Below, piece by piece: positions 4,273-56,026 of a stretch of 64,000 nt of DNA. Below the pieces are notes generated by a model. The model did no database searches. It was not told the origin of the DNA and saw nothing but the letters and a program-made list of their open reading frames with translations. The first letter of the stretch is position 1, and the number at the start of each line of letters is the position of its first letter. The stretch covers positions 25,120 through 89,119 of the forward strand of contig JBAYJR010000002.1 in assembly GCA_041665005.1 (NCBI GenBank). The letters are read 5' to 3'. A program made the translations under genes and the position numbers. Source of the stretch: Candidatus Buchananbacteria bacterium. Its GTDB lineage: Bacteria > Patescibacteriota > Patescibacteriia > 2-01-FULL-39-33 > JBAYJR01.

Positions 4273-5847
4273 ATGTCTAATACCTTATATCGTAAATATC
4301 GTCCGCAAACCTGGTCCGAAATGATCGGGCAAAATCACATTAAAGTGACCTTGCAGCACGAATTAGAAACCGATAAGTTGGCGCACGCTTACTTATTTTG
4401 TGGTCCGCGCGGATTGGGTAAAACCACCGCGGCCCGGTTGTTGGCTAAATCTTTAAATTGTACCAATCGCGGCCAAGGTAAAAGTGAACCTTGCAACGAA
4501 TGCAAGGCATGTCAGGAAATTATGGCCGGCCACGCCATTGATTTGATAGAAATTGATGCCGCTTCACAAACCGGAGTGGATAACGTGCGGGAAAATATTA
4601 TTCAAAATTCTCGCTTTACACCTAACGTTGGAAAATATAAAGTTTTTATCATTGACGAAGTGCATATGTTGTCCACTTCGTCTTTTAATGCCCTGTTAAA
4701 AACTTTAGAAGAACCTCCGGCCCATGCGATTTTTATTCTATGCACCACCGAGGTACATAAAATTCCCGAAACGATTATTTCTCGTTGTCAACGTTTTGAT
4801 TTTAAAAGAGTTAGCCAGGGTGATCTGGTTAAGTTGTTAGAAAAGATTTGTGTTCAGGAAAATCGTGAAGTGCAAACCTCGGTGCTACAAGAAATTGTCC
4901 GGCAGTCCGATGGTTGTGTACGCGACGCCGAAACTTTACTCGGTAAAATTTTATCACTAGAAGGAAAAATTACCAAAGAGGTGGCGGAAATAATTTTACC
5001 GCATTCAGATTTTAATTTAGTCATAGAATTGTTGCAAAATTTAACGGCCAACCAAACCGTGCCCGCTTTATTTTTAGTTAATCGTTTAGTGGAAGAAGGT
5101 TTAGATCTGACTAGTTTTGCTCAAGATGTTATTGAAATTTTACGTAAAATTTTACTAATTAAAAATAGTGGAGAGTTAGGAGATTTGGCTGGTGAGTTTG
5201 ATCCCGAAACCGAAAAAGAATTAGTAAAAATTTCAGATATTTTAACTTTAGGACAAATCGTGGAATGGTTGAATATTTTTATTAATTTAAAACAAGAATT
5301 ACGTTATAGTCAAATTGCGCAATTGCCCTTAGAGTTAGCCGTAGTTAAGCTGACTTCTGGGGTAACCGAACCAAACAAAGCAATTACTCCCGTAGCCAGT
5401 AAGCCGGCTGAGATTAAAAAAAAGACTAATCCGGAACCGGCTAAAGCCACCCCGGAGCCAGTTTTGAGTGAAGAGGTTGAAGTCACTAAAGGCGCGAAAG
5501 CCAAACTTTGTTTAGCGACCATCAAGGAAGAGTGGCTTAATTTGTTAAATAATATTTTAGAGCGCAATTATCCTTTGGCCGCCTTGCTAAAAACTTCTGA
5601 GCCGTTAAAATTTAGTGATAATTGTTTAGAAGTGGGGATAAAGTATCAATTTTACGCTGATCGCTTGCATGATCGCAAGCATCAACAAATTTTAAATGAG
5701 GCCACTAAAGCAGTTTTTGGCTCCGCTATCAACTTTAGAGGGATAATTAAGGCCGAAATTACTCCTTATGGTCAAGAGGAGGTGCGACCAGTTGATAATT
5801 TAGCCAGCCAAGTATTAGAAGTAATGGGCGGGGAAGTAGTAGAATAA
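4273..5847 (+). CDS. dnaX: DNA polymerase III subunit gamma/tau
   Basis: N-terminus YRPQTWSEMIGQNH, Walker A GPRGLGKTT, the Zn-binding CNECKAC box and IIDEVHML are all textbook DnaX motifs. Confidence 0.95.
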   Translation: MSNTLYRKYRPQTWSEMIGQNHIKVTLQHELETDKLAHAYLFCGPRGLGKTTAARLLAKSLNCTNRGQGKSEPCNECKACQEIMAGHAIDLIEIDAASQTGVDNVRENIIQNSRFTPNVGKYKVFIIDEVHMLSTSSFNALLKTLEEPPAHAIFILCTTEVHKIPETIISRCQRFDFKRVSQGDLVKLLEKICVQENREVQTSVLQEIVRQSDGCVRDAETLLGKILSLEGKITKEVAEIILPHSDFNLVIELLQNLTANQTVPALFLVNRLVEEGLDLTSFAQDVIEILRKILLIKNSGELGDLAGEFDPETEKELVKISDILTLGQIVEWLNIFINLKQELRYSQIAQLPLELAVVKLTSGVTEPNKAITPVASKPAEIKKKTNPEPAKATPEPVLSEEVEVTKGAKAKLCLATIKEEWLNLLNNILERNYPLAALLKTSEPLKFSDNCLEVGIKYQFYADRLHDRKHQQILNEATKAVFGSAINFRGIIKAEITPYGQEEVRPVDNLASQVLEVMGGEVVE

Positions 5848-5872: not shown

Positions 5873-6162
5873 GGTTTTGCTTTTTCGGTTACGGTCACTT
5901 CGGAGACCATTTTTATTAGTAGGCCTCGCTTAACCGCACCAGTCATGTCTTTACGAAAAGTAGGCAAGAGTTTCTTTCTAAAACTCTCTATCTCTTCTCG
6001 TGTAAACTTTTTAAAGTAATGAGTTGTTTTTCCGCAACTTATTCTTTCTTCTACAGTTTTTAGACAAGCGGTATTTAAAACGCAGGACCAATAAATCGCT
6101 TGACCATTTTGGTCTTGCCCTAATTCTGGCATTGGGACAAAATATGGACAGTTTTCTGCCAT
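5869..6162 (-). CDS. hypothetical Cys-containing small protein (97 aa)
   Basis: Minus-strand ORF with RBS aaggagg 7 nt upstream and a TTGACA-N17-TAAGCT promoter at about 6195..6225 on the minus strand. Four Cys residues. Confidence 0.5.
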   Translation of the reverse strand: MAENCPYFVPMPELGQDQNGQAIYWSCVLNTACLKTVEERISCGKTTHYFKKFTREEIESFRKKLLPTFRKDMTGAVKRGLLIKMVSEVTVTEKAKP

Positions 6163-6326
6163 AATAGCCTCCTTTTTAGATGATGTGTTTATAGCTTAGT
6201 CCTATTAAAAGCGCTTGTCAAGACCAAAAAAAGGTGATAGAATATAGCATTATTTGATTGATCGTTTAATAATTTATCTTTTGCTTAGCTGGCCAGCTTA
6301 TTTGCTTAAATGCTAATTTGCTTATT

Positions 6327-6349
6327 TTTATTGGGAGATCGTCTAATGG
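6327..6349 (+). repeat. 23-bp direct repeat, copy 1 (tttattgggagatcgtctaatgg), identical to 6657..6679
   Basis: Exact 23/23 match. Copy 2 is the 5' flank plus the first 18 nt of tRNA-Gln. Confidence 0.85.
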
Positions 6350-6400
6350 GAGTCGCCTCATCGGCGACCCGCCGAAAAGGCGGGGACAAATTAAATAATT

Positions 6401-6655
6401 ATGTGGTACGTTTACGTTTTACAAAGTTTAAAAAATAAGCGATTATATACAGGATTAACTGGTGATTTAAAAAGAAGATTTGGTGAACATAACGCAAAGC
6501 AGGGTGGAAAGTATACTAGCAAAGTAGCTCCATTTAAGCTAATATATTATGAGGCTTATTTAAATAAGCCTGATGCCAGTGCCGCGGAGAAGTTTTATAA
6601 AAGCGGATACGGCAGAGAAGTGTTTAAAGAGAAGGTAAAAAGTTATCTAAATTAA
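6401..6655 (+). CDS. GIY-YIG nuclease family protein (UPF0213/YhbQ-like)
   Basis: YVYVLQS...LYTGLTGDLKRRFGEHN is the GIY-YIG catalytic core. Confidence 0.85.
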   Translation: MWYVYVLQSLKNKRLYTGLTGDLKRRFGEHNAKQGGKYTSKVAPFKLIYYEAYLNKPDASAAEKFYKSGYGREVFKEKVKSYLN

Positions 6656-6661
6656 ATTTAT

Positions 6662-6735
6662 TGGGAGATCGTCTAATGGTAGGACGCCGCGCTCTGGACG
6701 CGGTAATTCTGGTTCGACTCCAGGTCTCCCAGCCA
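6662..6735 (+). tRNA. tRNA-Gln (anticodon CUG), CCA encoded
   Basis: Manual fold. Acceptor stem UGGGAGA/UCUCCCA with the U1-A72 pair and G73 discriminator characteristic of bacterial tRNA-Gln. D stem GUCU/GGAC. Anticodon stem CCGCG/CGCGG with loop CUCUGGA, giving anticodon CUG. T stem UCUGG/CCAGG with loop UUCGACU. 3' end CCA. Confidence 0.85.
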
Positions 6736-6745
6736 ATAGTCTAGA

Positions 6746-7231
6746 ATGTTTTTTATTAATATGATTAATCAACAACAACTTTGCGAATTTTTAGTTAAAG
6801 CGAAAAAAGTCACTTACGCGGCTGGGGCCGGAGCGCAAACTATAAACGAAAGTGACAAATCAAAAACTTTAAATTTTACGGAAGGCGATTGGCACTATCA
6901 GGATAATTATTTTGGTGGCGAACCGTTCGGTGGTCGGGAAGTAGTATTTTTTAAAAATCAGCCAGTGTATTTAATGGTTTATTATGGTCGGGTCGAAGAG
7001 GTAGTTACAGATTTTGAACCAGTCTATCAGATTTTACGCCAAGCCTTGTCTTTAATACCAGACGCTCAGCCGTTTCGTGGGCCGGCGCAATATCAAACTG
7101 GCGATTATGTTTATATTAATAATTATCAGGGTGAAGTGGATAATTTTTTTGGTGAGGAAAAAATTAGTTATCAGGGAGCGGTAGTTTATCAAGCCCGCTA
7201 CGCCGGCGGCTTAGTTGACCAGAAAAAATAA
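6746..7231 (+). CDS. hypothetical protein; its last ~45 nt plus the downstream spacer are duplicated at 13235..13286
   Basis: 161-aa ORF with no recognised motif. The 3' end is part of the 52-bp repeat. Confidence 0.5.
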   Translation: MFFINMINQQQLCEFLVKAKKVTYAAGAGAQTINESDKSKTLNFTEGDWHYQDNYFGGEPFGGREVVFFKNQPVYLMVYYGRVEEVVTDFEPVYQILRQALSLIPDAQPFRGPAQYQTGDYVYINNYQGEVDNFFGEEKISYQGAVVYQARYAGGLVDQKK

Positions 7232-7237
7232 TTTTTT

Positions 7238-7741
7238 ATGACGAAAGCAGTATTTCAAAAAATAATTAAAGATTCTAAGCAGGAAGTAAAAAGGCTTGCT
7301 AATGAAAATGGCTGGTCATGGTTTTATAATATGCACCAAAAGGAAGTAATAAAATATGCTGAAAAGCTATTAAATAAATATAAAAAAGCAGATAAAGAAA
7401 TAGTTTTAATTTCCTGTTGGTTGCACGATATTGCACACTATTATGCCAAAGATGGCAAGGGAATTTTAAAAGTTAAAAAGTCGCATCATATTAACGGCGC
7501 TAAAATTGCGGAGCAATTGTTAAAAAAATACAATTTAGACAAGGAGGAAATTAGTAAGGTTAAAAATTGCATTTTAAAACATCGGAACTGTCAGCCGTAT
7601 TTAGCAGAAACGTTGGAAGAAAAAATTGTAGTGGCCGCTGATACTTTGTCTCATTTCGGTAGTATCTTTTACTTTACATATTTTAAATTTCATCCCGGTC
7701 ATTCTCTAGAAAGAATGGTAAAAGATGATTTAAAAAAATAG
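7238..7741 (+). CDS. HD-domain phosphohydrolase (paralogue of 13284..13841); possibly frameshifted at an A7 run
   Basis: WLHDIAHY...KHRN HD motif, and alignable with the 13284 ORF over most of its length. The frame continues in +1 after aaaaaaa at 7732..7738 for a further 44 codons, to about 7860. Confidence 0.7.
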   Translation: MTKAVFQKIIKDSKQEVKRLANENGWSWFYNMHQKEVIKYAEKLLNKYKKADKEIVLISCWLHDIAHYYAKDGKGILKVKKSHHINGAKIAEQLLKKYNLDKEEISKVKNCILKHRNCQPYLAETLEEKIVVAADTLSHFGSIFYFTYFKFHPGHSLERMVKDDLKK

Positions 7742-8022
7742 CGAGAGATTGGCGTGACCTGCAAATTTTACCCGAAGCAAAAAAGATGGTTGAGACAGAA
7801 TATCAGACTATAAAAAGGTTGTTAGAGAATTATAATAAAAATGGGGCTAATTTAAACTAACGTCGTTAAGCGATCTCCATTAAGGTAATAGATTAGCAGT
7901 TGACTATTTATAGTTGTTGTCGCTTCAAGAGAGATCTTTGTTTTTGGACATAAATAAACTACTATGTTAATATTCTATCGTTACCTGAATAGTCGTTAAT
8001 TTGGCAAAATAAATATAATATT

Positions 8023-8970
8023 ATGAATACAAAAAAAATTTATGAGCTTATCGTTTTGGCTGGCATACAAGCAGATTTGCGCGGCAGTAAAAGAGTAAAA
8101 CAACACCTAAACAGGCTTAATGAAAAATATAAAAAGTTGTCTACCAAAGAAAAGATGGAGTTTGACAAGGAGAGTCTTAGTAATCCATACACAGATTCCC
8201 GTATTTTAAACACCAATGGCAGGGAAATAAAAAGAATTATGGCTGGAATCGATATTGATGGCTCCGAACTTCTTTTGGCTAAACACATAGGTGGCGTTGA
8301 TTTGGTTGTGGCACATCATCCTCAGGGCTTAGCCTTGGCGGGACTACATGAAGTCATGTTAATGCAAGCAGAAATATTAGCCGACTACGGCATCCCTATT
8401 AATATAGCGCAGTCACTTATAAAATTACGTATTTCTGAGGTTAGTCGTAGTTTGTCGCCGGCCAATCATAGTCGTAGCGTAGATTTTGCTAAAATTCTTG
8501 GGCTCGATTTTATGTGCGTTCATACTCCGGCGGATAATTTAGCCGCTAGTTTTTTAGTAAAGTTGTATGAAAAGAAAAAAAATAGTCTAGAAACTGTTGA
8601 AGATTTAATTGATCTCTTGAAGACGATACCAGAATATAGTAATGCGGTGAAAATAAAGAACGGCCCCAAAATTTTTGTTGGGTTACCTGAAAATTATTTA
8701 GGCAAGGTGGTTTTTACGGAAATCACTGGTGGCACTTCTGGATCAAAAGATATTTATGAAAAAATGTCTCATTATGGAATAGGCACTATAGTTGGCATGC
8801 ACATGAGTGACGAACATCGTCAGGAGGCAGAAAAATACCATATTAACGTAGTTATTGCGGGCCATATGTCTTCCGATTCTTTGGGTATGAATTTGTTTTT
8901 GGATAAAATAGAAAAAAGAGGAGTAGAAATAATCCCTGTTTCTGGTTTTATAAGAGTTAAAAGATTTTAA
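8023..8970 (+). CDS. NIF3-like (DUF34/YqfO family) dinuclear-metal-centre protein, tentative
   Basis: DLVVAHHPQG and a C-terminal VVIAGHMSSD resemble the NIF3 His-rich metal-binding motifs. Low-GC gene. Confidence 0.4.
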   Translation: MNTKKIYELIVLAGIQADLRGSKRVKQHLNRLNEKYKKLSTKEKMEFDKESLSNPYTDSRILNTNGREIKRIMAGIDIDGSELLLAKHIGGVDLVVAHHPQGLALAGLHEVMLMQAEILADYGIPINIAQSLIKLRISEVSRSLSPANHSRSVDFAKILGLDFMCVHTPADNLAASFLVKLYEKKKNSLETVEDLIDLLKTIPEYSNAVKIKNGPKIFVGLPENYLGKVVFTEITGGTSGSKDIYEKMSHYGIGTIVGMHMSDEHRQEAEKYHINVVIAGHMSSDSLGMNLFLDKIEKRGVEIIPVSGFIRVKRF

Positions 8971-9012
8971 AAATTGTGCCTAAAGATTCATTTTTGTTGT
9001 ATTTTAGTAAAT

Positions 9013-9040
9013 TTGACGTTTTTTGTAAGAAGAGTATACT
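9013..9040 (+). promoter_or_regulatory. sigma70-type promoter TTGACG-N16-TATACT upstream of the small-peptide ORF
   Basis: ttgacg at 9013..9018 and tatact at 9035..9040. Confidence 0.5.
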
Positions 9041-9072
9041 AATAATAGCTAAGTTATATCTAATTTATAACT

Positions 9073-9177
9073 ATGAAAAAAATTAAGAAAAAGAGTTTGA
9101 CTCAGGGGACTGTTGAATTAGTAAAATTGGCATGGATTAAAGGTAAAAAGTTCAAACAGTCAATGGTTTGCAATTAA
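9073..9177 (+). CDS. 34-aa Lys-rich peptide MKKIKKKSLTQGTVELVKLAWIKGKKFKQSMVCN; candidate RiPP precursor
   Basis: Short ORF with its own promoter and a perfect terminator hairpin, directly upstream of the methyltransferase/radical-SAM operon. There is no obvious SD sequence, which lowers confidence. Confidence 0.4.
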   Translation: MKKIKKKSLTQGTVELVKLAWIKGKKFKQSMVCN

Positions 9178-9180
9178 AAT

Positions 9181-9213
9181 AAAAAAAGGCTTATTTAATT
9201 TAAGCCTTTTTTT
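9181..9213 (+). terminator. rho-independent terminator/attenuator after the peptide ORF
   Basis: aggctta-tttaatt-taagcct followed by T7. Confidence 0.7.
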
Positions 9214-9219
9214 GCTCCT

Positions 9220-10131
9220 ATGAAAGAACAAAAAGAGATAAGTTTTTTTGAATATTTTGGTGTAGCCAAAAAATATATTGGTAATATTACCTTGGTTTTT
9301 GAGTTTTTAAAAAATCAGGAGGGGATAGGCTATAATATTTTTAAAAAGGGCAAGCTTATAAGGTATTTATCATCTCATTATTTAGTTAGAGATAGAAAAA
9401 AGTTAAAAAATAACAAAACTTGGCTGTGCTACAAAAAAGATTTTAATAAAAAAATTGTTGTTGGGTATCAAGGCTTATGGTTTTTTTGTCGAGAGACAGT
9501 TTGGAGCCCATCGGTTGACGCTGTTTTTATGATTGATGCAATTAATAAATACAAGAGCCTTAGTATAAATAATTTTTCTTCTATATTGGATTATGGTTGC
9601 GGTTCGGGTGTTGTTGGTATATCGTTGGCTAAAAAAAGTAAAAAGGTAAAAGAATTGAGCTTGGTGGATGTTAACGATTCGGCATTGTTCTGCTCTTTAA
9701 TAAATTGTATCGGTAATAATTTAAAAGTAAATTTTAATATAGCCAACCATTTAAATAAAAAGAGATATGATCTCGGTTTGGTTACGCCTTATTATTTTCC
9801 CATTGAAAAGCGTGACTATTTAGATTCTAGGCAGGCCATGCAGGCCATTGTAAAAGCCGGCAAGGACTCCGCCATAATGATTAATGATTTAAGCAAGATT
9901 TGCAGTGAGGTATTTTTTGTTTATTCGTCTATAACAGAAAAAGTTTTTAGAGAAGAGCTAAGTGTTAAATATAAAGATGTTTGTTATATGGATGTACCTT
10001 TTTCTTTAGGTGATAATGTCAGTAGTAACTCGTTGGTCGGAGCCGCCGCTGAAAATAATTTGTTAATTTTTAAAAAGGATTCTCAATTTAAATTTTGGCA
10101 TAGAATATATATGGCTAAAATTATTAGTTAA
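9220..10131 (+). CDS. class I SAM-dependent methyltransferase (methyltransferase small domain, PrmC/RsmC-like)
   Basis: LDYGCGSGVVG glycine-rich SAM motif I, followed by an acidic LVDVND motif II. Confidence 0.7.
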   Translation: MKEQKEISFFEYFGVAKKYIGNITLVFEFLKNQEGIGYNIFKKGKLIRYLSSHYLVRDRKKLKNNKTWLCYKKDFNKKIVVGYQGLWFFCRETVWSPSVDAVFMIDAINKYKSLSINNFSSILDYGCGSGVVGISLAKKSKKVKELSLVDVNDSALFCSLINCIGNNLKVNFNIANHLNKKRYDLGLVTPYYFPIEKRDYLDSRQAMQAIVKAGKDSAIMINDLSKICSEVFFVYSSITEKVFREELSVKYKDVCYMDVPFSLGDNVSSNSLVGAAAENNLLIFKKDSQFKFWHRIYMAKIIS

Positions 10132-10134
10132 TAT

Positions 10135-11457
10135 ATGAAAGAATCTATTATTTGCAAAGAAATTGTTCCGGGGTATTTAGTTGTTTATAATAAAAAAACT
10201 AACGAAACATTCCTAACTAAGTCGTTAGAAGTTAAAAATTTTTCTCAAAAAGATTGGGATATCTTTTTTAATAAACAACCAAAAAAAACGGCAAAGAAAT
10301 TCGACGCCCGATCTTTTTTTACAACGGTCGTTCTTAATACTACAGAATCATGTAATCTAAGATGTCGTTATTGTTCAAGATATAAAGAACAGTATAAAAA
10401 AGAAAAGACAATGCCCGATGTTATTATGTTTTTGGGTGTTGAAAGGGCTATCGAGCACGCTAAGTTGATCAAGGAAAGGGTTGTTGTGCAATTTCACGGT
10501 GGTGAACCTTTATTGTTTTTTACAAAAATTAAGTCTGTTTTAGAGAGTTTTTCTAAAAAAGATTTAAAAAAGATAGATTTAAGAATACAAACAAACGGAA
10601 CTTTAATTACGGATGATATTTTAAAATTTTGTCTTCTTTATAATATTCATTTAGGTATTTCGGTAGATGGGCCGCCGGAGATAAATGGCATTAATCGTCG
10701 ATTTGCAGACGGAACTCCAATTTCCGAAGTTTTAGATAAAAAATTAAAACAGGTTAGAAAGTATTTACCAAATAATCACATAAGTTGTTTGGCTGTTTTA
10801 ACTCAAGCAAACGTTAATAACGCCAAAAAAGTTTTGGATTATATTTATAAAAATAAAATTAATGATGTCTCTATTTTACCAATTTATCCAGATTTTACCA
10901 ATTGTTTAAATACCTCGGATCACATAATTCCGAGAACAGAAAAAATGGTTGAATTTTCTAAATTGATTTTTGATTTATGGTTAGAAAGATTAAGAAAGGG
11001 GCAGTTTGTTTCTATACCAAATTTTCAAATTTGGTTTTGGAACTTTTTAGGCATTAATGCTAATTATATAACTAACAATACTTCTTGTGGTGTTGGACAA
11101 AGTATGATTTTTATAAATACTGATGGGGAAATTTATCCCTGTGGGCCGTTCTCCTATGAAAACAAAATGTCTTTCGGAAATATAAGAAAAATTAATTTGA
11201 TTGATATAAAGAAAAAAAAGGTATTTAAGATGTTTAATAAAAGGAGTACTAAAAATGTTGATGATTGTCGAGATTGCGCTCTACAGAGTATCTGTATGGG
11301 TGGGTGCCCAGCTAATAGTTACCTCAAAGAGAAGTCAATTTATAAGAAAGATCCATTTTGTGAATATTGGCAGGGGATAATTGAATATATTGTTAAAAAT
11401 ATCATAGACGATCCTGATATTTGTAATTTAATTCCAGATTTTTCAATTCGTTTGTAG
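10135..11457 (+). CDS. radical SAM enzyme with a C-terminal SPASM domain (peptide-modifying/anSME-like maturase)
   Basis: CNLRCRYC (CxxxCxxC) radical-SAM cluster motif, and a C-terminal CRDCALQSICMGGCP (Cx2Cx5Cx3C) SPASM motif. Confidence 0.85.
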   Translation: MKESIICKEIVPGYLVVYNKKTNETFLTKSLEVKNFSQKDWDIFFNKQPKKTAKKFDARSFFTTVVLNTTESCNLRCRYCSRYKEQYKKEKTMPDVIMFLGVERAIEHAKLIKERVVVQFHGGEPLLFFTKIKSVLESFSKKDLKKIDLRIQTNGTLITDDILKFCLLYNIHLGISVDGPPEINGINRRFADGTPISEVLDKKLKQVRKYLPNNHISCLAVLTQANVNNAKKVLDYIYKNKINDVSILPIYPDFTNCLNTSDHIIPRTEKMVEFSKLIFDLWLERLRKGQFVSIPNFQIWFWNFLGINANYITNNTSCGVGQSMIFINTDGEIYPCGPFSYENKMSFGNIRKINLIDIKKKKVFKMFNKRSTKNVDDCRDCALQSICMGGCPANSYLKEKSIYKKDPFCEYWQGIIEYIVKNIIDDPDICNLIPDFSIRL

Positions 11458-11461
11458 TTTT

Positions 11462-12490
11462 ATGAAAAATATAAACTCCACCAATCTTTCTGGTAAAACA
11501 GAAATTGATCTATTATTGACTACTAGGTGTAATTTGGCTTGCAAACACTGTTTGTATGTTGATCATAAAAAGTTTGTTGATTTAGATGATAAAATATTGA
11601 AGATTATTTTAGATAAACTGCCAGTAAACGGCTCAGAAGTTCATTTGTTAGGCGGCGAACCGTTATGTCGCACCGATATTGTTAAAATTGTAGACAAGAT
11701 AAATAAAAAACAATTGAATCCCCAAATATTAACCAATGGCTTTGCTTTGACTGATAGTTTATTAAAAAAATTACACCAAGCTGGTTTGAAAAAAATTGGT
11801 TTTAGTCTTGATGGCACAAAAAGCGTCCATAATTTCATAAGGGGGAAAGGCGATGTTTTTCAACGGGTAATTAGGGCTATAAAAGCTATCAAAAAGTTAG
11901 GTTATATTCCCAAAATCAGTTCAGCGGTTCATCAGCACAATAAAGACAGTATTTTAAAATTAATTCCTTTTCTTGACAAACTGGGCGTGCAAAGAGTATT
12001 AATTGAACATTTTCTTCCGATTAACGGGGGAACACAATTGGCGGGAAAAAATTTAAATAAGAAAGAATGGCAAGCTTTTATTAAAGATATAAAAGTTTTA
12101 AAAAAAATAAATAAATTGTCCATTAGAGTTGCTGTCCAAAAAGTTTTTTATGATAAACAGGAGGCAAGAGATTTTTCTTGTGTTTGTAAAAACTTAAAAT
12201 ATCCAATTGTTGACTCTTCAGGAAATTATTATCCTTGCATAATTTATTACGCCGCCGGTTTTCCAGCTGGTAATTTAAATAAAGATACGTGGGAAAAAAT
12301 TCACTCAGTTAAGTCTATTAGTAGTTACATAAAAAAAGTTAATAAAATAACGGGCCATGTAAAAGTTAACAAAATTAAGGTTTTGTGCCCGGCAATTAAA
12401 TTATTGGTGGTAAGAAAAGAATTGGATTTATCGAGTATATCAAATGTCAAAGGAACTATTGGTTGTTTTCACAAAGTAGAGTTGTTATGA
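11462..12490 (+). CDS. radical SAM enzyme (second, shorter; partial twitch/SPASM-like C-terminus)
   Basis: CNLACKHC CxxxCxxC motif near the N-terminus, LLGGEP glycine motif, and a C-terminal CVC...PC cysteine set. Confidence 0.8.
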   Translation: MKNINSTNLSGKTEIDLLLTTRCNLACKHCLYVDHKKFVDLDDKILKIILDKLPVNGSEVHLLGGEPLCRTDIVKIVDKINKKQLNPQILTNGFALTDSLLKKLHQAGLKKIGFSLDGTKSVHNFIRGKGDVFQRVIRAIKAIKKLGYIPKISSAVHQHNKDSILKLIPFLDKLGVQRVLIEHFLPINGGTQLAGKNLNKKEWQAFIKDIKVLKKINKLSIRVAVQKVFYDKQEARDFSCVCKNLKYPIVDSSGNYYPCIIYYAAGFPAGNLNKDTWEKIHSVKSISSYIKKVNKITGHVKVNKIKVLCPAIKLLVVRKELDLSSISNVKGTIGCFHKVELL

Positions 12491-13206
12491 AAGCCAGTAT
12501 AAAATATTATCAATATTCAAAATCAAGTTGGGGTAAAAGGAGGGGGGCGCTTATTTTTAGGCAGATTAAAAATTTACAATCAGAAAAAATTTTGAAATTA
12601 GATAATTTAAATATTATAGAACTTGGTTGTGGCGTTTGTACTGTCTCAAAAAAGTTTATTACAAAAAATAATAAAATTATCGCCGTTGATAAGAATTTGG
12701 AAATGTTGGTGTTAGTTAAAAATAGCCGGATTAATTTGGTAAACTATGATGTTTTGGATTTTTTAAAGAAAAACAAAAAAAAGTTTGATTTGATTATTTG
12801 TAATAATATTATTGAATATATAACTGATAAAGAAAGGTTTATGGGCTTATTGAATAAGGCAGTTAAAAAGAATTCTATTCTTTCATTGGTAGTTATTAAT
12901 TTAAATTATGAAGTTCTAAAAAGATTTAGGAATAATGAGTGGCGAGCTGGGATTTCATTGTTAAGAACAAGAAAATATTATAGTAATAATTTTAAATGCT
13001 CCTTTAATTTAAAGAGTATAGAAGAGTGGAAGATATTTTTAAATAGATTTGGATGGAAGATCGTTAATTGGCACGGGGTCGGCTTGATTGATAGCGATCT
13101 ATACAAAGATTCACATAAAGGAATGGACTATGAGCTAGAGTTATTAAAAAAATCACCTTATCGTGATCAAGCGGTTTTAACCCATTTTGTGTGTAAGATT
13201 ATGTAA
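12487..13206 (+). CDS. class I SAM-dependent methyltransferase
   Basis: IIELGCGVCTVS motif I and ADKNLEML motif II. The ATGA start overlaps the stop of the upstream radical-SAM gene. The ORF track begins at 12463 but the ATG at 12487 is the likelier start. Confidence 0.75.
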   Translation: MKASIKYYQYSKSSWGKRRGALIFRQIKNLQSEKILKLDNLNIIELGCGVCTVSKKFITKNNKIIAVDKNLEMLVLVKNSRINLVNYDVLDFLKKNKKKFDLIICNNIIEYITDKERFMGLLNKAVKKNSILSLVVINLNYEVLKRFRNNEWRAGISLLRTRKYYSNNFKCSFNLKSIEEWKIFLNRFGWKIVNWHGVGLIDSDLYKDSHKGMDYELELLKKSPYRDQAVLTHFVCKIM

Positions 13207-13234
13207 AATGATAAATTTTATTGGTAAAAGTTTG

Positions 13235-13286
13235 TCAAGCCCGCTACGCCGGGGGCTTAGTTGATCAGAAAAAATAATTTTTTATG
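13235..13286 (+). repeat. 52-bp repeat, copy 2 (copy 1 at 7189..7240), 50/52 identical
   Basis: tcaagcccgctacgccgg(c/g)ggcttagttga(c/t)cagaaaaaataattttttatg. Both copies end in the start codon of an HD-domain gene. Confidence 0.85.
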
Positions 13287-13841
13287 GATTTAATTCAAGA
13301 GGTAAAAAACTTTGTAGAAAGCGAATCTTTAAAAGCCGATAGTAAATATGGGGCGGAGCCTTTTTATTATCATTTTACTTCGGTGGTTGAATATGCCAAG
13401 CGGCTAGCAGTAGAATTAGGAGGCGATGAAGAAGTAGTAACTATTGCCGGTTGGTTGCACGATATTGGTTCAATTATGCATGGTCGGGCTGATCACCATT
13501 TAACCGGCGCTAAAATTGCCGAAGAAAAATTAAAGGCCTGGGGTTATCCGGCCGAAAAAATCGCTTTGGTTAAAAAATGTATCTTAAATCATCGAGGCTC
13601 GCAACAAAATGATCGTCATAGCTTGGAAGAACAAATTGTGGCCGAAGCCGATACGATGAGTAATTTTGATAATCTGGCCGGTCTGTTTAAAGCCGCTTTG
13701 GTTTATGAAAATTTAAATCAAGGCGAAGCCAAAGATTCAGTTAGACAAAAATTGGAACGCAAATATAAAAAACTTCATTTTGCTAAATCTCAAGAATTAA
13801 TTAAGCCAAAATTTGAGGCCGCGATGTTATTGTTAAAGTAG
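13284..13841 (+). CDS. HD-domain phosphohydrolase (paralogue of 7238..7741)
   Basis: WLHDIGS...HH...NHRG HD motifs. Confidence 0.8.
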   Translation: MDLIQEVKNFVESESLKADSKYGAEPFYYHFTSVVEYAKRLAVELGGDEEVVTIAGWLHDIGSIMHGRADHHLTGAKIAEEKLKAWGYPAEKIALVKKCILNHRGSQQNDRHSLEEQIVAEADTMSNFDNLAGLFKAALVYENLNQGEAKDSVRQKLERKYKKLHFAKSQELIKPKFEAAMLLLK

Positions 13842-13854
13842 TAAAATTGTTAGT

Positions 13855-14514
13855 ATGAAATTATTACTTACTTCTAATGGATTAACCAATCAATCAATTG
13901 TTAAGGCCTTGTTTGAGTTAGTTAATAAAAAACCAGAAGACACCTCATTAATTTTTATTCCTACGGCTTCAAATGTGGAAGTAGGGGACAAAAGTTGGGT
14001 GACTGATGATTTAGAAAATTTAAACCAGCAAAACTTTAAGTCAATTGAGTCTGTCGACATTTCGGCGGTTGAAGAAAAGATTTGGCGACCAAAACTGGCA
14101 GCGGCTGATGTATTATTTTTTGAAGGAGGTAACTCTTTTCATTTAATGACTTGGATTAATAAATCTGGCTTAGCTTTGCTTTTACCGGAATTATTAAAAA
14201 ATAAAGTTTATGTTGGCTTGAGCGCCGGTAGTATGGTTGCTTGCAAGGATTTAACTTTGCAGATTAATCAGAATATTTATGAGGAAGATTTGGATAAAAC
14301 CCAGAATCTGCCCGGCCTTAATTTAGTGGATTTTTATTTTTTACCTCATCTAAACTCACCGTATTTTAAAAAAGCGCGAGAAAATTTTATTAAAGAAACT
14401 ATTAAAGAATCTCCCAAAACATTTTATGCGCTAGATGATAACTCAGCCTTAAAAATTGTTGATGGAAAAGTGGAAGTGATTAGCGAAGGGGAATGGTTTG
14501 GAGTGAATAATTAA
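13855..14514 (+). CDS. peptidase S51 family (dipeptidase E-like, type-1 glutamine-amidotransferase fold)
   Basis: MKLLLTSNG...FEGGNSFHLM...YVGLSAGSM matches the PepE catalytic Ser region. Confidence 0.75.
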   Translation: MKLLLTSNGLTNQSIVKALFELVNKKPEDTSLIFIPTASNVEVGDKSWVTDDLENLNQQNFKSIESVDISAVEEKIWRPKLAAADVLFFEGGNSFHLMTWINKSGLALLLPELLKNKVYVGLSAGSMVACKDLTLQINQNIYEEDLDKTQNLPGLNLVDFYFLPHLNSPYFKKARENFIKETIKESPKTFYALDDNSALKIVDGKVEVISEGEWFGVNN

Positions 14515-16235: not shown

Positions 16236-16979
16236 ATGAGCAATAGCTTGATCGTAAAAAATCTGACGGTTAGCTTGGGTCAGAAAAAAATCTTGTCAGA
16301 AATTAATTTAACGGTAGCGGCCGGTAAAATTGTAGTCTTAATGGGTCTTAATGGTTCAGGCAAGTCTACTTTAGCCAAGGCCATTTCTGGGCATCCGGAT
16401 TATCAAATTAATCGCGGTCAAATAATTTTTAATCAAAAAGATTTTACCAAACAACCCAGTTGGCAACGTAGTCGGGCGGGCTTATTCGGGTCTTGGCAAA
16501 ATCCGCTAGAAATAGCCGGACTTAATTTTTATCAATTTTTGTTAACAATTTTTTCAGCTAGTTGTGGCCATAATCAAGCCACTTTGTTTGAGCAACGATT
16601 GCAACAAGGTCTAAAAAATCTAAAACTAAAAGCTGAATTTTTAGAGCGTGATTTAAATGTGGGTTTTTCTGGCGGGGAAAAAAAGAAAGCGGAAATTTTG
16701 CAATTATACATTTTACAACCGCAAATTGCCGTCTTAGACGAAATTGATTCGGGTTTAGATATTGATGCCTTGCATTTGATTGCTAAAAATATTAAGCAAT
16801 TGGCCAAGCAAGGAGTTGGCTTTTTGTTAATTACTCATTATGCGCGATTGTTAAGCTATCTAAAAGTAAAAGAAGTTAAAGTAATGATTAGTGGTAAAAT
16901 TGTTAAAAGTGGTGGGATGGCCTTGGTGCGACAATTAGAAAAACAGGGTTATCAAAAAATTAGCAGTCAATCAAAATAG
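16236..16979 (+). CDS. sufC: Fe-S cluster assembly ATPase SufC
   Basis: Walker A LNGSGKST, ABC signature FSGGEKK, Walker B ILDEIDSGLD. Confidence 0.95.
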   Translation: MSNSLIVKNLTVSLGQKKILSEINLTVAAGKIVVLMGLNGSGKSTLAKAISGHPDYQINRGQIIFNQKDFTKQPSWQRSRAGLFGSWQNPLEIAGLNFYQFLLTIFSASCGHNQATLFEQRLQQGLKNLKLKAEFLERDLNVGFSGGEKKKAEILQLYILQPQIAVLDEIDSGLDIDALHLIAKNIKQLAKQGVGFLLITHYARLLSYLKVKEVKVMISGKIVKSGGMALVRQLEKQGYQKISSQSK

Positions 16980-16988
16980 TTTTATTTT

Positions 16989-18374
16989 TTGGTTATGGCA
17001 GAGTTCAAAAAATATAATTTTAAGGATATCAATCGGGCGGTGTATAAAACTTTGCCTGGTTTGTCGTCAAAAATTATCAAACAGATTTCTTTGCACAAAC
17101 AAGAGCCAGCTTGGATGCTAGTCAAGCGCCTGGCCGCGTATAAAATTTTTAAAAAACTGCCACTACCTAAGTGGGGTCCAAATTTAGCCTCATTGAATTT
17201 TGATCAGATCACTTATTATTGGGATCCGGCTAACCAACAGTCGTCTACTTGGCAGGAGGTGCCAGAAAACATTAAAAATACTTTTACAAAATTAGGTATT
17301 CCGCAAGCCGAACGGAAATTTTTGGCCGGGGTGGGAGCACAATATGAATCCGAGATGATCTACCATAATTTAAAAGAACAGTGGACAAAATTGGGTGTAG
17401 TATTTTGTGATATGTCGGAAGCGCCTAAACTTTATCCAGAACTAGTTAAGAAATATTTTGGTTCGTTAGTGCCGGCCGCAGACAACAAATTCGCCGCTTT
17501 AAATGCCGCCTGCTGGTCCGGTGGTTCATTTATTTACGTTCCTAAAGGGGTAAAAGTAGAACAGCCCTTACAGGCCTATTTTCGGTTAAATGCCTCGCAA
17601 TTAGGTCAATTTGAGCGTACCTTGATTATCGTAGACGAAGGGGCCTCGTTGCATTATATTGAAGGTTGTACGGCACCAACTTATAGTAAAAACTCTTTAC
17701 ACGCGGCGGTGGTAGAAGTGTTCGCTTTAAAAAATTCTAAGGTGCGTTATACGACGATTCAAAATTGGTCCAATAATGTTTTAAATTTAGTTACTAAACG
17801 AGCGGCGGCGGAAGCTAATGCCGTGGTGGAATGGGTGGATGGCAATTTAGGTTCTAAAATAACTATGAAATATCCGGCGGTAATTTTGCGGGGCGCTGGC
17901 GCTAAGGCAGAAATTTTAACTATTGCTTTAGCCGGCCAGGGTCAACAGCAAGATACTGGTGCCAAGGTGATTCATTTAGCACCTAATACCAAATCTAGTA
18001 TCGTAGCCAAGTCAATTTCTAAAAGTGGCGGGGTGGCCACTTATCGCGGTTTGGTGAAGATTGGCCCACGAGCTTATGGCAGTCAGAGTAAGGTAAAATG
18101 CGATGCTTTAATTCTAGATGAAAAATCCAGCAGTAATACTTTCCCAACGATTAATGATGCCACCAATCAAGCGGTGGTGGAACATGAAGCGACGGTGTCA
18201 AAAATTTCCGCCGAGCAATTAGCTTATTTACAAAGTCGCGGCTTAACTTCGGCCGAAGCGGAAAAATTAATTGTCTCTGGTTTTTTGCAAATTTTCGCCA
18301 AAGAATTACCAATGGAATATGCTTTAGAATTAAATCGGCTAATTGCTTTAGAAATGACCGGAGCGGTTGGTTAG
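16989..18374 (+). CDS. sufB: Fe-S cluster assembly protein SufB
   Basis: SufB/SufD beta-helix core with conserved FIYVPKGV and C-terminal GLTSAEAEKLIVSGF. Confidence 0.93.
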   Translation: MVMAEFKKYNFKDINRAVYKTLPGLSSKIIKQISLHKQEPAWMLVKRLAAYKIFKKLPLPKWGPNLASLNFDQITYYWDPANQQSSTWQEVPENIKNTFTKLGIPQAERKFLAGVGAQYESEMIYHNLKEQWTKLGVVFCDMSEAPKLYPELVKKYFGSLVPAADNKFAALNAACWSGGSFIYVPKGVKVEQPLQAYFRLNASQLGQFERTLIIVDEGASLHYIEGCTAPTYSKNSLHAAVVEVFALKNSKVRYTTIQNWSNNVLNLVTKRAAAEANAVVEWVDGNLGSKITMKYPAVILRGAGAKAEILTIALAGQGQQQDTGAKVIHLAPNTKSSIVAKSISKSGGVATYRGLVKIGPRAYGSQSKVKCDALILDEKSSSNTFPTINDATNQAVVEHEATVSKISAEQLAYLQSRGLTSAEAEKLIVSGFLQIFAKELPMEYALELNRLIALEMTGAVG

Positions 18375-20713: not shown

Positions 20714-21061
20714 ATGATTTCTGAAGACACTACTAATCCAGATTTAGGTTCGCCGATTTTAAGTTTTGAGGAGTTTTCTTTGCGCGGTCCGGATAATCGC
20801 CCGCGTTATGAAAATTTCTTTTTGTTTTTTGCCAAGGCTGATCCAGAAGCTTATGATGGCTATCATGACAAGCTTTGCTATAAAAAATTTATCGCAGAGA
20901 ACCCTGAATTAAATCAAATTTTGAATAATAAAGTTCAAGCGGTAATTGATAGCAAGATTTTGTCACGTTCTAAATCTTTTAAGGAATTTGATGACCAGCT
21001 TTATGAGGCTTATAAAATTATGCGTGGTTATGGGGTTAGTGACGAGGAATTATTTGGTTAG
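20714..21061 (+). CDS. hypothetical protein
   Basis: 115-aa ORF with no recognised motif. Confidence 0.45.
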   Translation: MISEDTTNPDLGSPILSFEEFSLRGPDNRPRYENFFLFFAKADPEAYDGYHDKLCYKKFIAENPELNQILNNKVQAVIDSKILSRSKSFKEFDDQLYEAYKIMRGYGVSDEELFG

Positions 21062-21220
21062 TTTGGGATAAAAATTTATAATTCAAACATGGCCGATACT
21101 GTTTATTTTTACGTAGACAGCCATGGGCGGATAAGTTATAATTAGGTTTTAATACTTTGTATATAAACGAGTTAGCTGAAATTAAGAATAGGCAAAAAAA
21201 GATAAAATAAATTCTTACAT

Positions 21221-22024
21221 ATGGGCAACCATAAAATCAGCATAACTGCAGAATTTGCATCTTTGATTAAATCAAGAACGGATGAAAAATATAATTATTT
21301 CGTTTCTAATAAAACGAGGAAATTATACAAGCTAATTTCTAATGTTTTTTCAAAAAATGCGATAGATAAGATTTTTCATGATAGACTGACTCTTTCGAAT
21401 GAATTTGGCACATTCATAGAAAAAAACAATTTTGAGACTATCGTTGAATTTGGTGCCGGTTATTCATTAAGGGGATTTGTATATTCCTTACAAAATAAGG
21501 ATGTAATTTATATTGATACGGATTTTGTTGGGGTGATAGAAAATAAAAAACAAATATTATTTGATATCTGTAAGGATGCTAATATTATTTACCCTGATAA
21601 TTATAGATTATTATCTGTGGATGTTTTAAATGATGATCTGGCTGAAAAATTGAATTCATATCTGAAAAATAGGAATTTATTTTTAGCTGAGGGTTTAACG
21701 TCGTATTTCAATTTTAAGGAATATTCAAAATTCTTGGACCGAATACGTCCATTTTTGAAACAATTTCAAAATGTATTTTTTTCTCAAGAGAATTTTTTAA
21801 AAAAACATTCTCTAGTTTATATGATTTTAAGGAAATTGGTTGTTGTTATGACTAGAAATAAATCATACATTAAATTTAAAACAAAAGACGATTTAACCAA
21901 ATTCCTAACAATAAAGGATTTAGCGATTGTCATGCATATTTCAAAGATGAGCATTTATTTTATAGAATCAATTAAATTATTTTGCCCATTTTTAACATCA
22001 TTTAATAACGTATATTTGTTTTAG
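21221..22024 (+). CDS. putative SAM-dependent methyltransferase (leucine-carboxyl/tetracenomycin O-MT-like), tentative; very AT-rich
   Basis: IVEFGAGYSLRG resembles the LCM-family motif I, followed by an acidic YIDTDF. Weak. Confidence 0.35.
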   Translation: MGNHKISITAEFASLIKSRTDEKYNYFVSNKTRKLYKLISNVFSKNAIDKIFHDRLTLSNEFGTFIEKNNFETIVEFGAGYSLRGFVYSLQNKDVIYIDTDFVGVIENKKQILFDICKDANIIYPDNYRLLSVDVLNDDLAEKLNSYLKNRNLFLAEGLTSYFNFKEYSKFLDRIRPFLKQFQNVFFSQENFLKKHSLVYMILRKLVVVMTRNKSYIKFKTKDDLTKFLTIKDLAIVMHISKMSIYFIESIKLFCPFLTSFNNVYLF

Positions 22025-22054
22025 GCTTTCCACAAAAGCTCCATTTATAATTCT

Positions 22055-22591
22055 ATGAACTACAAACATACTCAAATTGGTTACCTAATGCTGGTTGTTA
22101 CGCTGGCCGTGCTAGCGTTTTTCACTTGGCTGTATATTACGAGCGCGGTCGAGCCTCCCTCGGTTGACTCCGGCAATAATCTTGCTGTTACTACTGTCAT
22201 GGCCTTAATTTTATTTATTCTGGCTTCCTTCTGGTCACTTCAAATAATGATTGATGAAAAGTATTTACGAATTAAATTTGGCTACGGTCTTTATCAAAAA
22301 AAGTTTTTGCTTAATGACGTAATATCCGCTAAAATAGTAAAGAATCACTGGTACTACGGCTGGGGAGTAAAAGTCTGGTTTTGGCCTTATATGTGGATTT
22401 ACAATATTTCCGGTTTTGACGCGGTTGAAATAAAATTGAAGAATGGCCAAACGTACCGGATAGGCACGGATGAACCCAAGAAATTAGAACAAGCGATTCT
22501 GCAGTCAATCCGCAGAACTTCGGATACGGTTATATCCACAGGAGCCAAAGATGCACTAAATAAAATCATGGAGCAAAAAATTAAATACTAA
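22055..22591 (+). CDS. membrane protein (two N-terminal TM helices plus a bacterial PH-like domain), hypothetical
   Basis: Hydrophobic segments at residues about 10..30 and 45..65. Confidence 0.45.
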   Translation: MNYKHTQIGYLMLVVTLAVLAFFTWLYITSAVEPPSVDSGNNLAVTTVMALILFILASFWSLQIMIDEKYLRIKFGYGLYQKKFLLNDVISAKIVKNHWYYGWGVKVWFWPYMWIYNISGFDAVEIKLKNGQTYRIGTDEPKKLEQAILQSIRRTSDTVISTGAKDALNKIMEQKIKY

Positions 22592-28892: not shown

Positions 28893-29903
28893 ATGACTAA
28901 GAATATTCAAATAGTTTGCTTGGGTTCTATTTCTCGCGATTTGATGTTTTATACACCCGCGGGCAAGGTTTTTATTGATCAGAATAATCAAGTTGATTCT
29001 CAGTGGTTAGCCTTTGTTTTGGCTACCAAAGTTGATATGCCAGAATTTTATTATACTTGGGGCGGGGGTGCGGCCAATACCGCCGTTGGTTTAGCCAAGC
29101 TGGGTTTAAAAGTAGGAGTGGTTGGTTGTATTGGTGATGATCATGATGGTCGTCGAGCACTGGTTAATTTAAAAAATTTTAAAGTTGATACTACCGGAGT
29201 CACTAAGACCAAAAAAGCCCAAACTGGCTTGTCTATTATTGTTAGCCGACAGTCGGTAGACAAGGAACACGTCGCTTTTGTTCATCGCGGTGCTAATGAT
29301 TATTTTAAATTTGTTTGCCCTACTAAATATTTAGCGGCTAAATATTTTTACCTTAATACTTTAAACGGGGAGGCCTGGCTAAAGATTTTAAAACAAATTT
29401 TTGCAACAGCCCGACAGCAACAAATTAAAATTTATTGGAACCCAGGCGGTAAGCAGTTAGCGGCTGGATTGAAAGCTCTAGAACCATTTTTAGCACAAAC
29501 TGAGATTTTACAGCTTAACCAGGAAGAAGCCAAAAAGTTGCTAGTTTCAGCGTTGTCAGCTGCAGATTTAAGTCAGCCCAAGCGGCTGTTAATTGGTTTG
29601 TCTGCCTTGGGCCCAAAACTGGTTATAGTTACTTTGGGTGAACAAGGGGCAATAGTTTATGATGGTCATAATTTTTATAGCCAGCCAATTTATCCCAGTA
29701 AAAATGTAGATACAATTGGGGTAGGTGATTCCTTTGGTGCTGCCTTTTTAGCCAGTTTGATTTATCAGCCCCAGCAAATTACTACGGCCCTGGCTTGGGG
29801 GTTAATTAATTCCGGTTGTAACGTGGCTAAAATTGGCGCGCAGGAGGGAATTATCACTAAAGCCGAAATTTCTAAAAAATTTAAGCAGTGGTTTAAATCA
29901 TAA
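28893..29903 (+). CDS. PfkB-family carbohydrate/nucleoside kinase
   Basis: N-terminal GxGSxxxD and a C-terminal DTIGVGDSFGAAF anion-hole motif. Start placed at the ATG at 28893 (RBS taagga), not the ORF-track start at 28869. Confidence 0.8.
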   Translation: MTKNIQIVCLGSISRDLMFYTPAGKVFIDQNNQVDSQWLAFVLATKVDMPEFYYTWGGGAANTAVGLAKLGLKVGVVGCIGDDHDGRRALVNLKNFKVDTTGVTKTKKAQTGLSIIVSRQSVDKEHVAFVHRGANDYFKFVCPTKYLAAKYFYLNTLNGEAWLKILKQIFATARQQQIKIYWNPGGKQLAAGLKALEPFLAQTEILQLNQEEAKKLLVSALSAADLSQPKRLLIGLSALGPKLVIVTLGEQGAIVYDGHNFYSQPIYPSKNVDTIGVGDSFGAAFLASLIYQPQQITTALAWGLINSGCNVAKIGAQEGIITKAEISKKFKQWFKS

Positions 29904-32914: not shown

Positions 32915-32929
32915 TAACTAAAAGTTTTT

Positions 32930-52493: not shown

Positions 52494-52498
52494 TCTTT

Positions 52499-53671: not shown

Positions 53672-53673
53672 TT

Positions 53674-56016: not shown

Positions 56017-56026
56017 ATAAATTTAT

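Follow-up and report, generated by a model that had tools for sequence, protein, structure and literature searches.

Radical S-adenosylmethionine (SAM) enzymes with a SPASM domain are a major source of new peptide chemistry, and new families of their precursor peptides have tended to reveal new cross-links. The reduced genomes of the candidate phyla radiation (CPR; Patescibacteria) are thought to hold very little secondary metabolism. The closest described systems to the locus treated here are the ranthipeptide and SCIFF maturases; in the thioether formers CteB, PapB and Tte1186, the auxiliary cluster AC1 is held by three Cys residues, and the Cys of the substrate binds AC1 (PMC10177961). A second point of reference is NxxcB, which makes a radical-SAM beta-thioether onto Asn, with Gln tolerated (PMC9389541). 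Here we describe a gene cluster from a metagenome-assembled genome of Candidatus Buchananbacteria (CPR/Patescibacteria), located in a 64,000-nucleotide stretch of contig JBAYJR010000002.1 (the whole analysed stretch is called the window, and all coordinates refer to it). As a whole, segment 7241-13228 is best explained as a cluster of an undescribed family for a peptide made by ribosomes and modified after its translation (RiPP), with the chemistry and the single-crossover origin proposed below; we place the probability of this combined reading at about 0.7. The kind of system, namely a ribosomal peptide modified by a radical SAM/SPASM enzyme, is well known and not categorically new, and it is the precursor family, the dedicated methyltransferase family and the occurrence in a CPR genome that appear undescribed.

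The features of the cluster are as follows.

9013-9040, plus strand: sigma-70-like promoter match (TTGACG-16-TATACT, 10/12), 33 nt upstream of the precursor ATG; a consensus match only
9073-9177, plus strand: precursor peptide gene (34 aa, MKKIKKKSLTQGTVELVKLAWIKGKKFKQSMVCN), with homologous open reading frames (ORFs) upstream of rSAM1 in all related loci
9181-9213, plus strand: terminator- or attenuator-like hairpin with flanking A- and T-runs (-14.8 kcal/mol, z = -4.1); a fold match only
9220-10131, plus strand: MT1, a class I methyltransferase that falls in the HemK/RsmC 'MTS' clade and has T189-P-Y-Y instead of NPPY as motif IV
10135-11457, plus strand: rSAM1, radical SAM/SPASM peptide maturase (Pfam Radical_SAM 5.7e-16, SPASM 9.8e-12)
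11462-12490, plus strand: rSAM2, second radical SAM protein, for accessory tailoring (Pfam Radical_SAM 4.1e-21; C23, C27 and C30 in CNLACKHC)
12487-13206, plus strand: MT2, class I methyltransferase (Pfam Methyltransf_31/23/12/25/11), with an ATGA overlap with rSAM2

An initial annotation, made from the letters of the window alone, had proposed a candidate RiPP cluster at this place. The genes that it listed, and the tight spacing between them (gaps of 3 and 4 nt, one ATGA overlap), are borne out by the ORFs and by the Pfam and NCBIfam searches, and the RiPP reading itself is supported by the related loci and by the precursor family. The promoter and terminator that it assigned to the 34-aa ORF were likewise recovered, as the consensus and fold matches listed above.

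The evidence that carries this reading begins with the peptide. The predicted product of the 34-aa ORF has a variable Lys-rich leader, a hydrophobic stretch and a C-terminal core, Q29-S-M-V-C33-N34. An ORF of 33-45 aa lies just upstream of the enzyme genes in 11 of 11 distinct loci (the window and ten further ones; the loci named are the window, L002/3, L004, L005/6, L007, L088, L089/90, L091/92, L093 and L104/105), and hairpins comparable to that of the window are found 3' of the peptide gene in most of the related loci. All 20 distinct peptides end with Q-[PSA]-[MF]-[VL]-C-N-stop; Q(-6), C(-2) and the final N are the same in all of them, and M(-4) and V(-3) are each present in 19 of the 20. 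Further shared features are a hydrophobic stretch (-21 to -16) and two basic positions (-10/-9); towards the N-terminus, sequence and charge vary freely, with net charges from -4 to +12. The Cys is single in 19 peptides, and one peptide has two. A profile search of 5.8 billion proteins yielded 17 called homologues, all of the same kind, and the window's own peptide is absent from the called proteins that this search returned. The peptides match no model in Pfam or in NCBIfam (release 20). By its sequences the family has the leader-plus-core layout of RiPP precursors, with the predicted core at the extreme C-terminus. The suggestion that the 34-aa ORF is a RiPP precursor is thus strengthened by a conserved family of 20 peptides with a shared C-terminal motif beside rSAM1, and modification of this peptide by rSAM1 is, in our estimation, very probable.

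The signature enzyme of the cluster is rSAM1, the protein of which is identical to NCBI MFA6428087.1. Its radical SAM motif CNLRCRYC (C73-x3-C77-x2-C80) is invariant in the 34 family members, as are the seven Cys residues of its SPASM domain (C318, C336, C378, C381, C387, C391 and C409), four of which are spaced C378x2C381x5C387x3C391. Profile hidden Markov model (HMM) searches detected PF04055 in both rSAM1 (59.6 bits against a cut-off of 29.5) and rSAM2, and SPASM (PF13186; 45.4 bits against 21.5) in rSAM1, in agreement with the motifs read earlier. The family is discrete: 34 clusters were recognized at E<=1e-81 (38-83% identity) among 5.8 billion proteins, and the next match is at 1e-37. 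The best NCBIfam matches of rSAM1 are PapB (165.4 bits, cut-off 340), anaerobic sulfatase-maturating enzyme (anSME; 155.7, cut-off 349), HxsB (150, cut-off 370) and SCIFF (119, cut-off 425), and DynA and CbpB also appear; these are peptide-maturase models only, and all scores are under half of the cut-off. No NCBIfam model claims any of the 34 members (best E-value 6e-53), and the best E-value of the PapB model (NF047865) among them is 1.7e-51. The radical SAM enzymes are not of a housekeeping type such as RlmN or MiaB, a finding that the initial annotation had named as contrary to its proposal; the best models and folds of rSAM1 are those of peptide maturases.

The AlphaFold2 (AF2) model of rSAM1 has a predicted local distance difference test score (pLDDT) of 88.8, and the closest solved structures, by both sequence and fold, are CteB, anSME, ChlB, TigE and SuiB. 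The seven SPASM Cys residues align one-to-one with those of CteB, three of them with AC1 and four with AC2. Residues 5-46 form a small N-terminal domain of three strands and two short helices in the AF2 model (beta3-alpha2), and HMM alignments to CteB, HxsB and CefB reach into this region; as modelled, this domain could dock the leader. Apart from this, the nearly invariant C257, within 'DFTNC', is situated in the only internal loop with pLDDT <50 (residues 254-261, window 10894-10917); a role as a mobile ligand or in catalysis is conceivable for it.

The core of the system consists of the peptide and rSAM1, which no locus lacks. MT1 is frequent and not universal; it exists in the window, L002, L004, L005, L007, L088, L089 and L091. 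It is accompanied by rSAM2 in six of the 11 locus types, and MT2 is found in four. The other neighbours are variable: L004 and L005 have short-chain dehydrogenases/reductases (SDRs), L004 has an M42 peptidase as well, and Amidohydro_2 genes occur in L091/92, L093 and L104/105. In L007 (8906-16020), the precursor, MT1 and rSAM1 are followed by a 71-aa ORF, a B12-binding radical-SAM gene and three glycosyltransferase-type genes; genes for an S51 peptidase and a NIF3 protein follow at a distance of 7 kb downstream of that cluster.

The MT1 family is tiny, with 11 representatives at E<=1e-30 among 1.84 billion and the next match at 1e-17. The match spans about 170 of the 303 residues of MT1, and the N-terminal part of about 100 aa is family-specific and has no PDB counterpart. 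The orthologues conserve the SAM motifs and have [TA]PYY[FV]P, not (N/D)PPY, as motif IV. By fold MT1 belongs to the N-methyltransferase clade, its fold neighbours being rRNA and protein methyltransferases; the PrmC model (TIGR03534) scores 37.4 bits, far from its cut-off of 199, and the NPPY motif is missing. MT1 differs by its motif IV and its extra N-terminal domain from HemK/PrmC, N6AMT1, RsmC/RlmG, PrmA and AerE (a RiPP amide N-methyltransferase). The second radical SAM protein, rSAM2, has five further conserved Cys residues in its C-terminal third (C240, C242, C259, C309 and C335), and its best NCBIfam matches are of the NirJ2, AhbD and MoaA types, far under cut-off, with a resemblance at superfamily level only. 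Orthologues of MT2 exist in L002, L088 and L089, and the block in common with L002 has its right boundary at the MT2 stop codon (13207).

Comparison with the known systems shows partial likeness to several of them. The enzymes PapB, CteB and Tte1186 share with rSAM1 the radical SAM and SPASM domains and the scheme of three plus four Cys residues, PapB being the best NCBIfam match and CteB the best solved fold, and in both cases a short Cys-containing precursor is encoded beside the enzyme. However, the precursors of the present family have one Cys, no CX3D/E repeats and no Asp or Glu after the Cys, differing in this from the PapB type, and the six Cys in about 45 residues of the SCIFF peptide (TIGR03974) stand against one here (two in one of the 20). 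The core at the extreme C-terminus, ending in Asn, and the dedicated HemK-like methyltransferase family are further differences from both ranthipeptides and SCIFF. The NxxC RiPPs resemble the present peptides in that a radical SAM enzyme makes, or here would make, a single thioether between one Cys and a carboxamide residue; NxxcB takes Asn or Gln (PMC9389541), and both Q and N are invariant here, but the arrangement is Q-x3-C-N rather than N-x2-C. The likeness is by analogy of chemistry only. With mycofactocin (MftA/MftC) and pyrroloquinoline quinone (PQQ; PqqA/PqqE), the system has in common a short precursor with conserved residues at or near the C-terminus, a SPASM radical-SAM enzyme and, in some loci, neighbouring SDRs, hydrolases and glycosyltransferases. 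The peptides, however, end with VCN and have no C-terminal Gly-Val-Tyr or Glu/Tyr pair, no MftB or PqqD chaperone gene is present, and the MftC and PqqE models score far below cut-off (MftC, TIGR03962, cut-off 265: 62.9 bits for rSAM2, with rSAM1 not among the top matches). The anSMEs (TIGR03942), which are among the two best matches of rSAM1 in both sequence and fold, also act on a peptide Cys, but the extra Cys segment 'TCTC' of anSME is missing from rSAM1, and neither a sulfatase gene nor a C/S-x-P/A-x-R motif is recognized. Finally, the peptides are without the HxS repeats of the His-Xaa-Ser system (HxsB). The earlier comparison with the maturases of sactipeptides, PQQ and mycofactocin is, in its specifics, by analogy only.

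From these features the following mechanism may be proposed. The precursor would be transcribed from its own promoter, and the hairpin after the gene would curb read-through into the enzyme genes. The variable leader, probably through its hydrophobic stretch, would be bound by the small N-terminal beta-sheet domain of rSAM1, and the single invariant C33 would ligate the open iron of the three-Cys AC1. Cleavage of SAM by rSAM1 would then give a 5'-deoxyadenosyl radical that takes a hydrogen from a nearby core residue, and Q29, four residues upstream of C33, is the favoured acceptor, with the adjacent N34 as a possible one. A thioether ring would thereby close within the invariant C-terminal Q-x-M-V-C-N. 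Subsequently, MT1 may methylate a nitrogen, either a Gln or Asn carboxamide (favoured) or an amine, and rSAM2 and MT2 may perform further tailoring. By analogy with the thioether formers, formation of a thioether by rSAM1 in the core is a tenable proposal to which we give slightly less than an even chance.

The segment that carries the cluster is set apart from its surroundings, and the features that bear on its boundaries are listed here.

6746-7231, plus strand: DUF5680 gene (Pfam PF18931, 1.5e-30), in the host-side flank; its last 49 nt are the left part of repeat copy 1
7183-7240, no strand: direct repeat copy 1, comprising the DUF5680 3' end, the spacer and the ATG of HD1
7238-7741, plus strand: HD1, an AT-rich paralogue with an HD domain, at the island's left end (Pfam HD 6.6e-12; GC 30.6%)
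8023-8970, plus strand: NIF3-like gene (Pfam DUF34_NIF3 4.3e-5, 23.7 bits, barely over the cut-off of 23.4)
13229-13286, no strand: direct repeat copy 2, a non-coding relic comprising the DUF5680 3' end, the spacer and the ATG of HD2
13284-13841, plus strand: HD2, in the right flank, with host-like GC (38%; Pfam HD 4.4e-14)

All genes of the region are on the plus strand, in the order dnaX (4273-5847), a GIY-YIG ORF (6401-6655), tRNA-Gln (6662-6735), DUF5680, HD1, the NIF3-like gene, the 34-aa ORF, MT1, rSAM1, rSAM2, MT2, HD2, an S51 peptidase gene, an rlmH-type SPOUT methyltransferase gene and the suf genes. Segment 7241-13228 has a GC content of 30.7%, against 37.8% in the rest of the window, and is the lowest of all 6-kb windows (mean 37.0%, standard deviation 2.1); the tetranucleotide distance to the whole window also peaks at the island (0.25, against a background of about 0.13). 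The AT-richness between the repeats that the initial annotation had claimed is therefore quantitative, the segment being the strongest outlier in the window, and it includes HD1 as well, but it does not extend to the NIF3-like gene, the GC content of which is 36.8%. The repeat, described earlier as 52 bp with 50 of 52 positions identical, has that identity within the range given and is in fact slightly longer, with 55 of 58 nt identical between 7183-7240 and 13229-13286 (95%; mismatches at 7188, 7207 and 7219). It occurs twice in the 64-kb window, where shuffled sequences give an expectation of 0. The similarity ends abruptly on the left, and on the right exactly at the ATG. In DUF5680 homologues the C-terminal peptide is conserved and the codons and nucleotides are quite different; because other DUF5680 genes differ in nucleotides in this way, copy 2 is a recent copy of this genome's own DUF5680 sequence and not a conserved element. 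The two HD genes, called paralogous in the initial annotation, both have Pfam HD domains but are only 40% identical in protein, and their DNA is barely alignable past the repeat.

The closest relative of the island is L002, which shares only the part from NIF3 to MT2 (window 8161-13207, 73% nucleotide identity; 55-83% amino-acid identity for the cluster) in unrelated flanks, and the other related loci also have neighbours different from the island's surroundings, so that a gene order conserved together with its surroundings, which would have spoken against insertion, was not seen. The related loci span 32-55% GC. In L004 (1-16439), the peptide-MT1-rSAM1 module, with SDR and M42 peptidase genes, is situated between tyrosine integrases and beside ParA, DUF3408, NikA-like and relaxase genes, and the relaxase has its best matches, at about 51% identity, on plasmids from Parabacteroides, Phocaeicola and Bacteroides; by its gene content, L004 is recognizable as an integrative mobilisable element of Bacteroidales type that carries the module. 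The earlier proposal of horizontal acquisition is thus supported by the composition, the repeat, the L002 flanks, the L004 element and the GC range of the loci, but an integrase inside the segment and, among relatives none of which is close, an empty site were not found, and we judge insertion of the segment into this genome to be, on balance, somewhat probable. The incoming DNA would have been a circle carrying HD1 through MT2, with its junction at 13228|13229, and a single crossover (Campbell-type) between the host DUF5680/HD2 junction and a homologous stretch on the circle would have left the 58-nt direct repeat. A single crossover is favoured because the repeat is 95% identical and the HD genes 40%, because the right boundary is at the ATG, and because HD1 is intact and in frame. 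An old tandem duplication of HD genes was rejected as the origin of the repeat on account of the same difference in identity, and a plain target-site duplication is less likely than a homologous or site-specific single crossover, as the duplicated ATG opens a full-length HD1 reading frame.

The alternative to acquisition, which we hold to be unlikely, is that the cluster is long-resident and vertically inherited. The 58-nt repeat would then stem from gene conversion or a duplication on the spot, and the genes' own composition would account for the low GC. The L002 block is also below its own flanks in GC, so that low GC goes with the genes; L002 may itself be a relative with rearranged flanks; the differences in GC at third codon positions are modest (0.24-0.29 against 0.31-0.35); and the missing integrase and empty site and the host-like GC of the NIF3-like gene are in keeping with long residence. 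Against this, a 95% repeat beside HD genes of 40% identity is not expected of an old duplication, no other part of the 64 kb is as atypical in composition as the segment, and the module is scattered over genomes of 32-55% GC, including the mobilisable element in L004.

Several observations weigh against the combined reading of a thioether-forming RiPP cluster acquired by single crossover. As to the chemistry, the thioether, the acceptor residue and the methylation site are all put forward by analogy, and a seven-Cys SPASM domain is not confined to thioether formers. The further conserved residues C218 and C257 of rSAM1 could supply a fourth ligand to AC1, and the N-terminal domain of about 46 aa is shorter than a canonical RiPP recognition element. 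The MT1 motif lacks the N/D of NPPY, and MT1 is absent from L093 and L104/105, where Amidohydro_2, peptide and rSAM1 stand alone with an unchanged core motif; MT1 is therefore not essential to the core reaction. The window cluster is without a transporter, leader peptidase or immunity gene. As to the origin, no integrase or mobility gene is present among the ORFs of 7241-13228, the L002 block has no flanking repeats, and the GC content of the NIF3-like gene is host-like. No empty site was found in relatives, in a comparison that included no close relative of this genome, and the closest homologues of DUF5680 (<=59%) and HD2 (<=74%) are in unrelated contexts: a metagenome scan with DUF5680 returned homologues at 47-59% identity only, none with the order DUF5680-HD-S51, and the best homologues of HD2 (72-73% identity) have surroundings so unrelated to this locus that synteny is unusable.

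A different function for the same genes, which we consider rather improbable, is that the peptide is a sacrificial scaffold, as in mycofactocin and PQQ: rSAM1 (with MT1, rSAM2 and MT2) would modify the C-terminal residues, and a hydrolase would excise them for intracellular use. In every peptide the invariant residues are the final six, at the free carboxylate, and the rest of the peptide varies, with a charge of -4 to +12; no exporter or immunity gene is found in any locus, a point of limited force since many true RiPP clusters likewise have no linked exporters. Hydrolase, redox and tailoring neighbours recur (Amidohydro_2, M42 with SDR, SDR, glycosyltransferases with B12-radical SAM, and NIF3-like), yet none of the accessory hydrolases occurs in all loci, genes for MftB- or PqqD-like chaperones are missing, and no mycofactocin or PQQ family model reaches its cut-off. 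It is similarly doubtful that the Q-x-M-V-C-N peptides are not antibiotics and instead are the source of a small sulfur-containing, methylated, cofactor- or signal-like molecule, made by a horizontally shared pathway; if this is true, it would represent a new peptide-derived metabolite pathway common to CPR bacteria of ultra-small size, mobile elements of Bacteroidales and other lineages.

Action of the enzymes on RNA, on a protein (in the manner of anSME) or on a metabolite, with the 34-aa ORF being incidental, is very improbable. It would be in line with anSME among the best matches, with the resemblance of rSAM2 to NirJ, AhbD and MoaA types and with the rRNA and protein methyltransferases that are the fold neighbours of MT1, but all such matches are far under the family cut-offs, an ORF with the invariant motif lies beside rSAM1 in every locus, and there is neither a sulfatase nearby nor a C/S-x-P/A-x-R motif in the peptide. 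An anti-phage defence island of viperin-like radical SAM, methyltransferases and HD nuclease, for which the island-like setting and weak PADLOC matches might speak (rSAM2 and rSAM1 match pVip with 74 and 52 bits, the methyltransferases match mad2, and both HD1 and HD2 match Cas3-HD), is equally improbable and was rejected, since these matches cover the generic radical-SAM, Rossmann and HD cores at superfamily level only, no defence model is completed as a system, and the conserved precursor peptide is left unexplained.

Some features of the flanking genes are recorded here in addition. HD1 (a 167-aa call) stops directly after an A7 run (7732-7738), and the C-terminus of the HD family, ARDWRDLQILPEAKKMVETEYQTIKRLL, continues to 7861 in another frame, where the segment resembles the C-terminus of HD2; HD1 is apparently frameshifted, being either a pseudogene or a homopolymer assembly error, and the same 167-aa call is made in the independent Logan assembly L001. 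The family of HD2, with proteins of 185 aa, keeps about 70% identity across hundreds of records of Patescibacteria, DPANN archaea and Omnitrophota, in gene neighbourhoods unrelated to each other, and this unusually strong conservation suggests frequent transfer among ultra-small microbes. The NIF3-like protein is 55% identical in amino acids to its L002 neighbour; the gene lies immediately upstream of the precursor only here and in L002 and is not next to the module in most other loci, and HD1 is adjacent only here. The NIF3-like gene and HD1 are probably passengers rather than biosynthetic genes, with an accessory role also conceivable for the former. At a distance of 450 nt to the left of the island, the GIY-YIG ORF (Pfam 4.7e-18) lies between 31-nt direct repeats (6322-6352 and 6652-6682, 28/31 identical) that include the first 21 nt of tRNA-Gln, an arrangement that resembles the insertion of a small GIY-YIG gene next to a tRNA gene. 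Besides tRNA-Gln, Rfam recognized nothing in window 6000-14000. SufC and SufB (window 16236-18374) are encoded 3 kb downstream of the two radical-SAM genes, a proximity that is convenient for the maturation of Fe-S enzymes and probably coincidental. Elsewhere in the window, a second low-GC patch at 21000-22100 (24-29% GC) overlaps ORF 21221-22024, which has a borderline Pfam match to leucine carboxyl methyltransferase (LCM; 22.5 bits), and the tetranucleotide distance is raised at 29001-35000 and 52001-60000 (0.20-0.21, against about 0.13), where the GC content is not low. A DUF5680 homologue in contig L100 (about 510-560) has an in-frame TGA (KYA*GF) where all others have Gly (KY.GG), which suggests that this contig is from an organism reading UGA as Gly (code 25, Gracilibacteria/Absconditabacteria).

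The family is rare and unannotated; among billions of proteins it is represented by about 34 clusters of the enzyme and about 20 peptides. A scan of genome contigs with the rSAM1 family alignment gave generic patterns, all of <=27% identity among the matches listed, and the plasmid and phage collections hold no close relative of rSAM1, the best being about 27% identical. In viral contigs, the alignment scan gave generic radical-SAM matches of <=30% only; the back-translated KQxMVCN-stop pattern matched 13 times by chance, and neither rSAM1 nor MT1 was encoded near any of these sites. The module was thus not seen on any plasmid, phage or viral contig. Full-text literature searches for the core motif returned nothing relevant, and in general searches on RiPPs and CPR bacteria the family was not described. 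The peptide system is a minimal one for testing, as it consists of a short peptide (33-40 aa) with an invariant six-residue C-terminal core and a single Cys, and one enzyme, and MT1 adds to it an unusual HemK-like methyltransferase with an altered catalytic motif. A laterally acquired peptide pathway in Candidatus Buchananbacteria would point to a role in interaction with a host or with neighbours.

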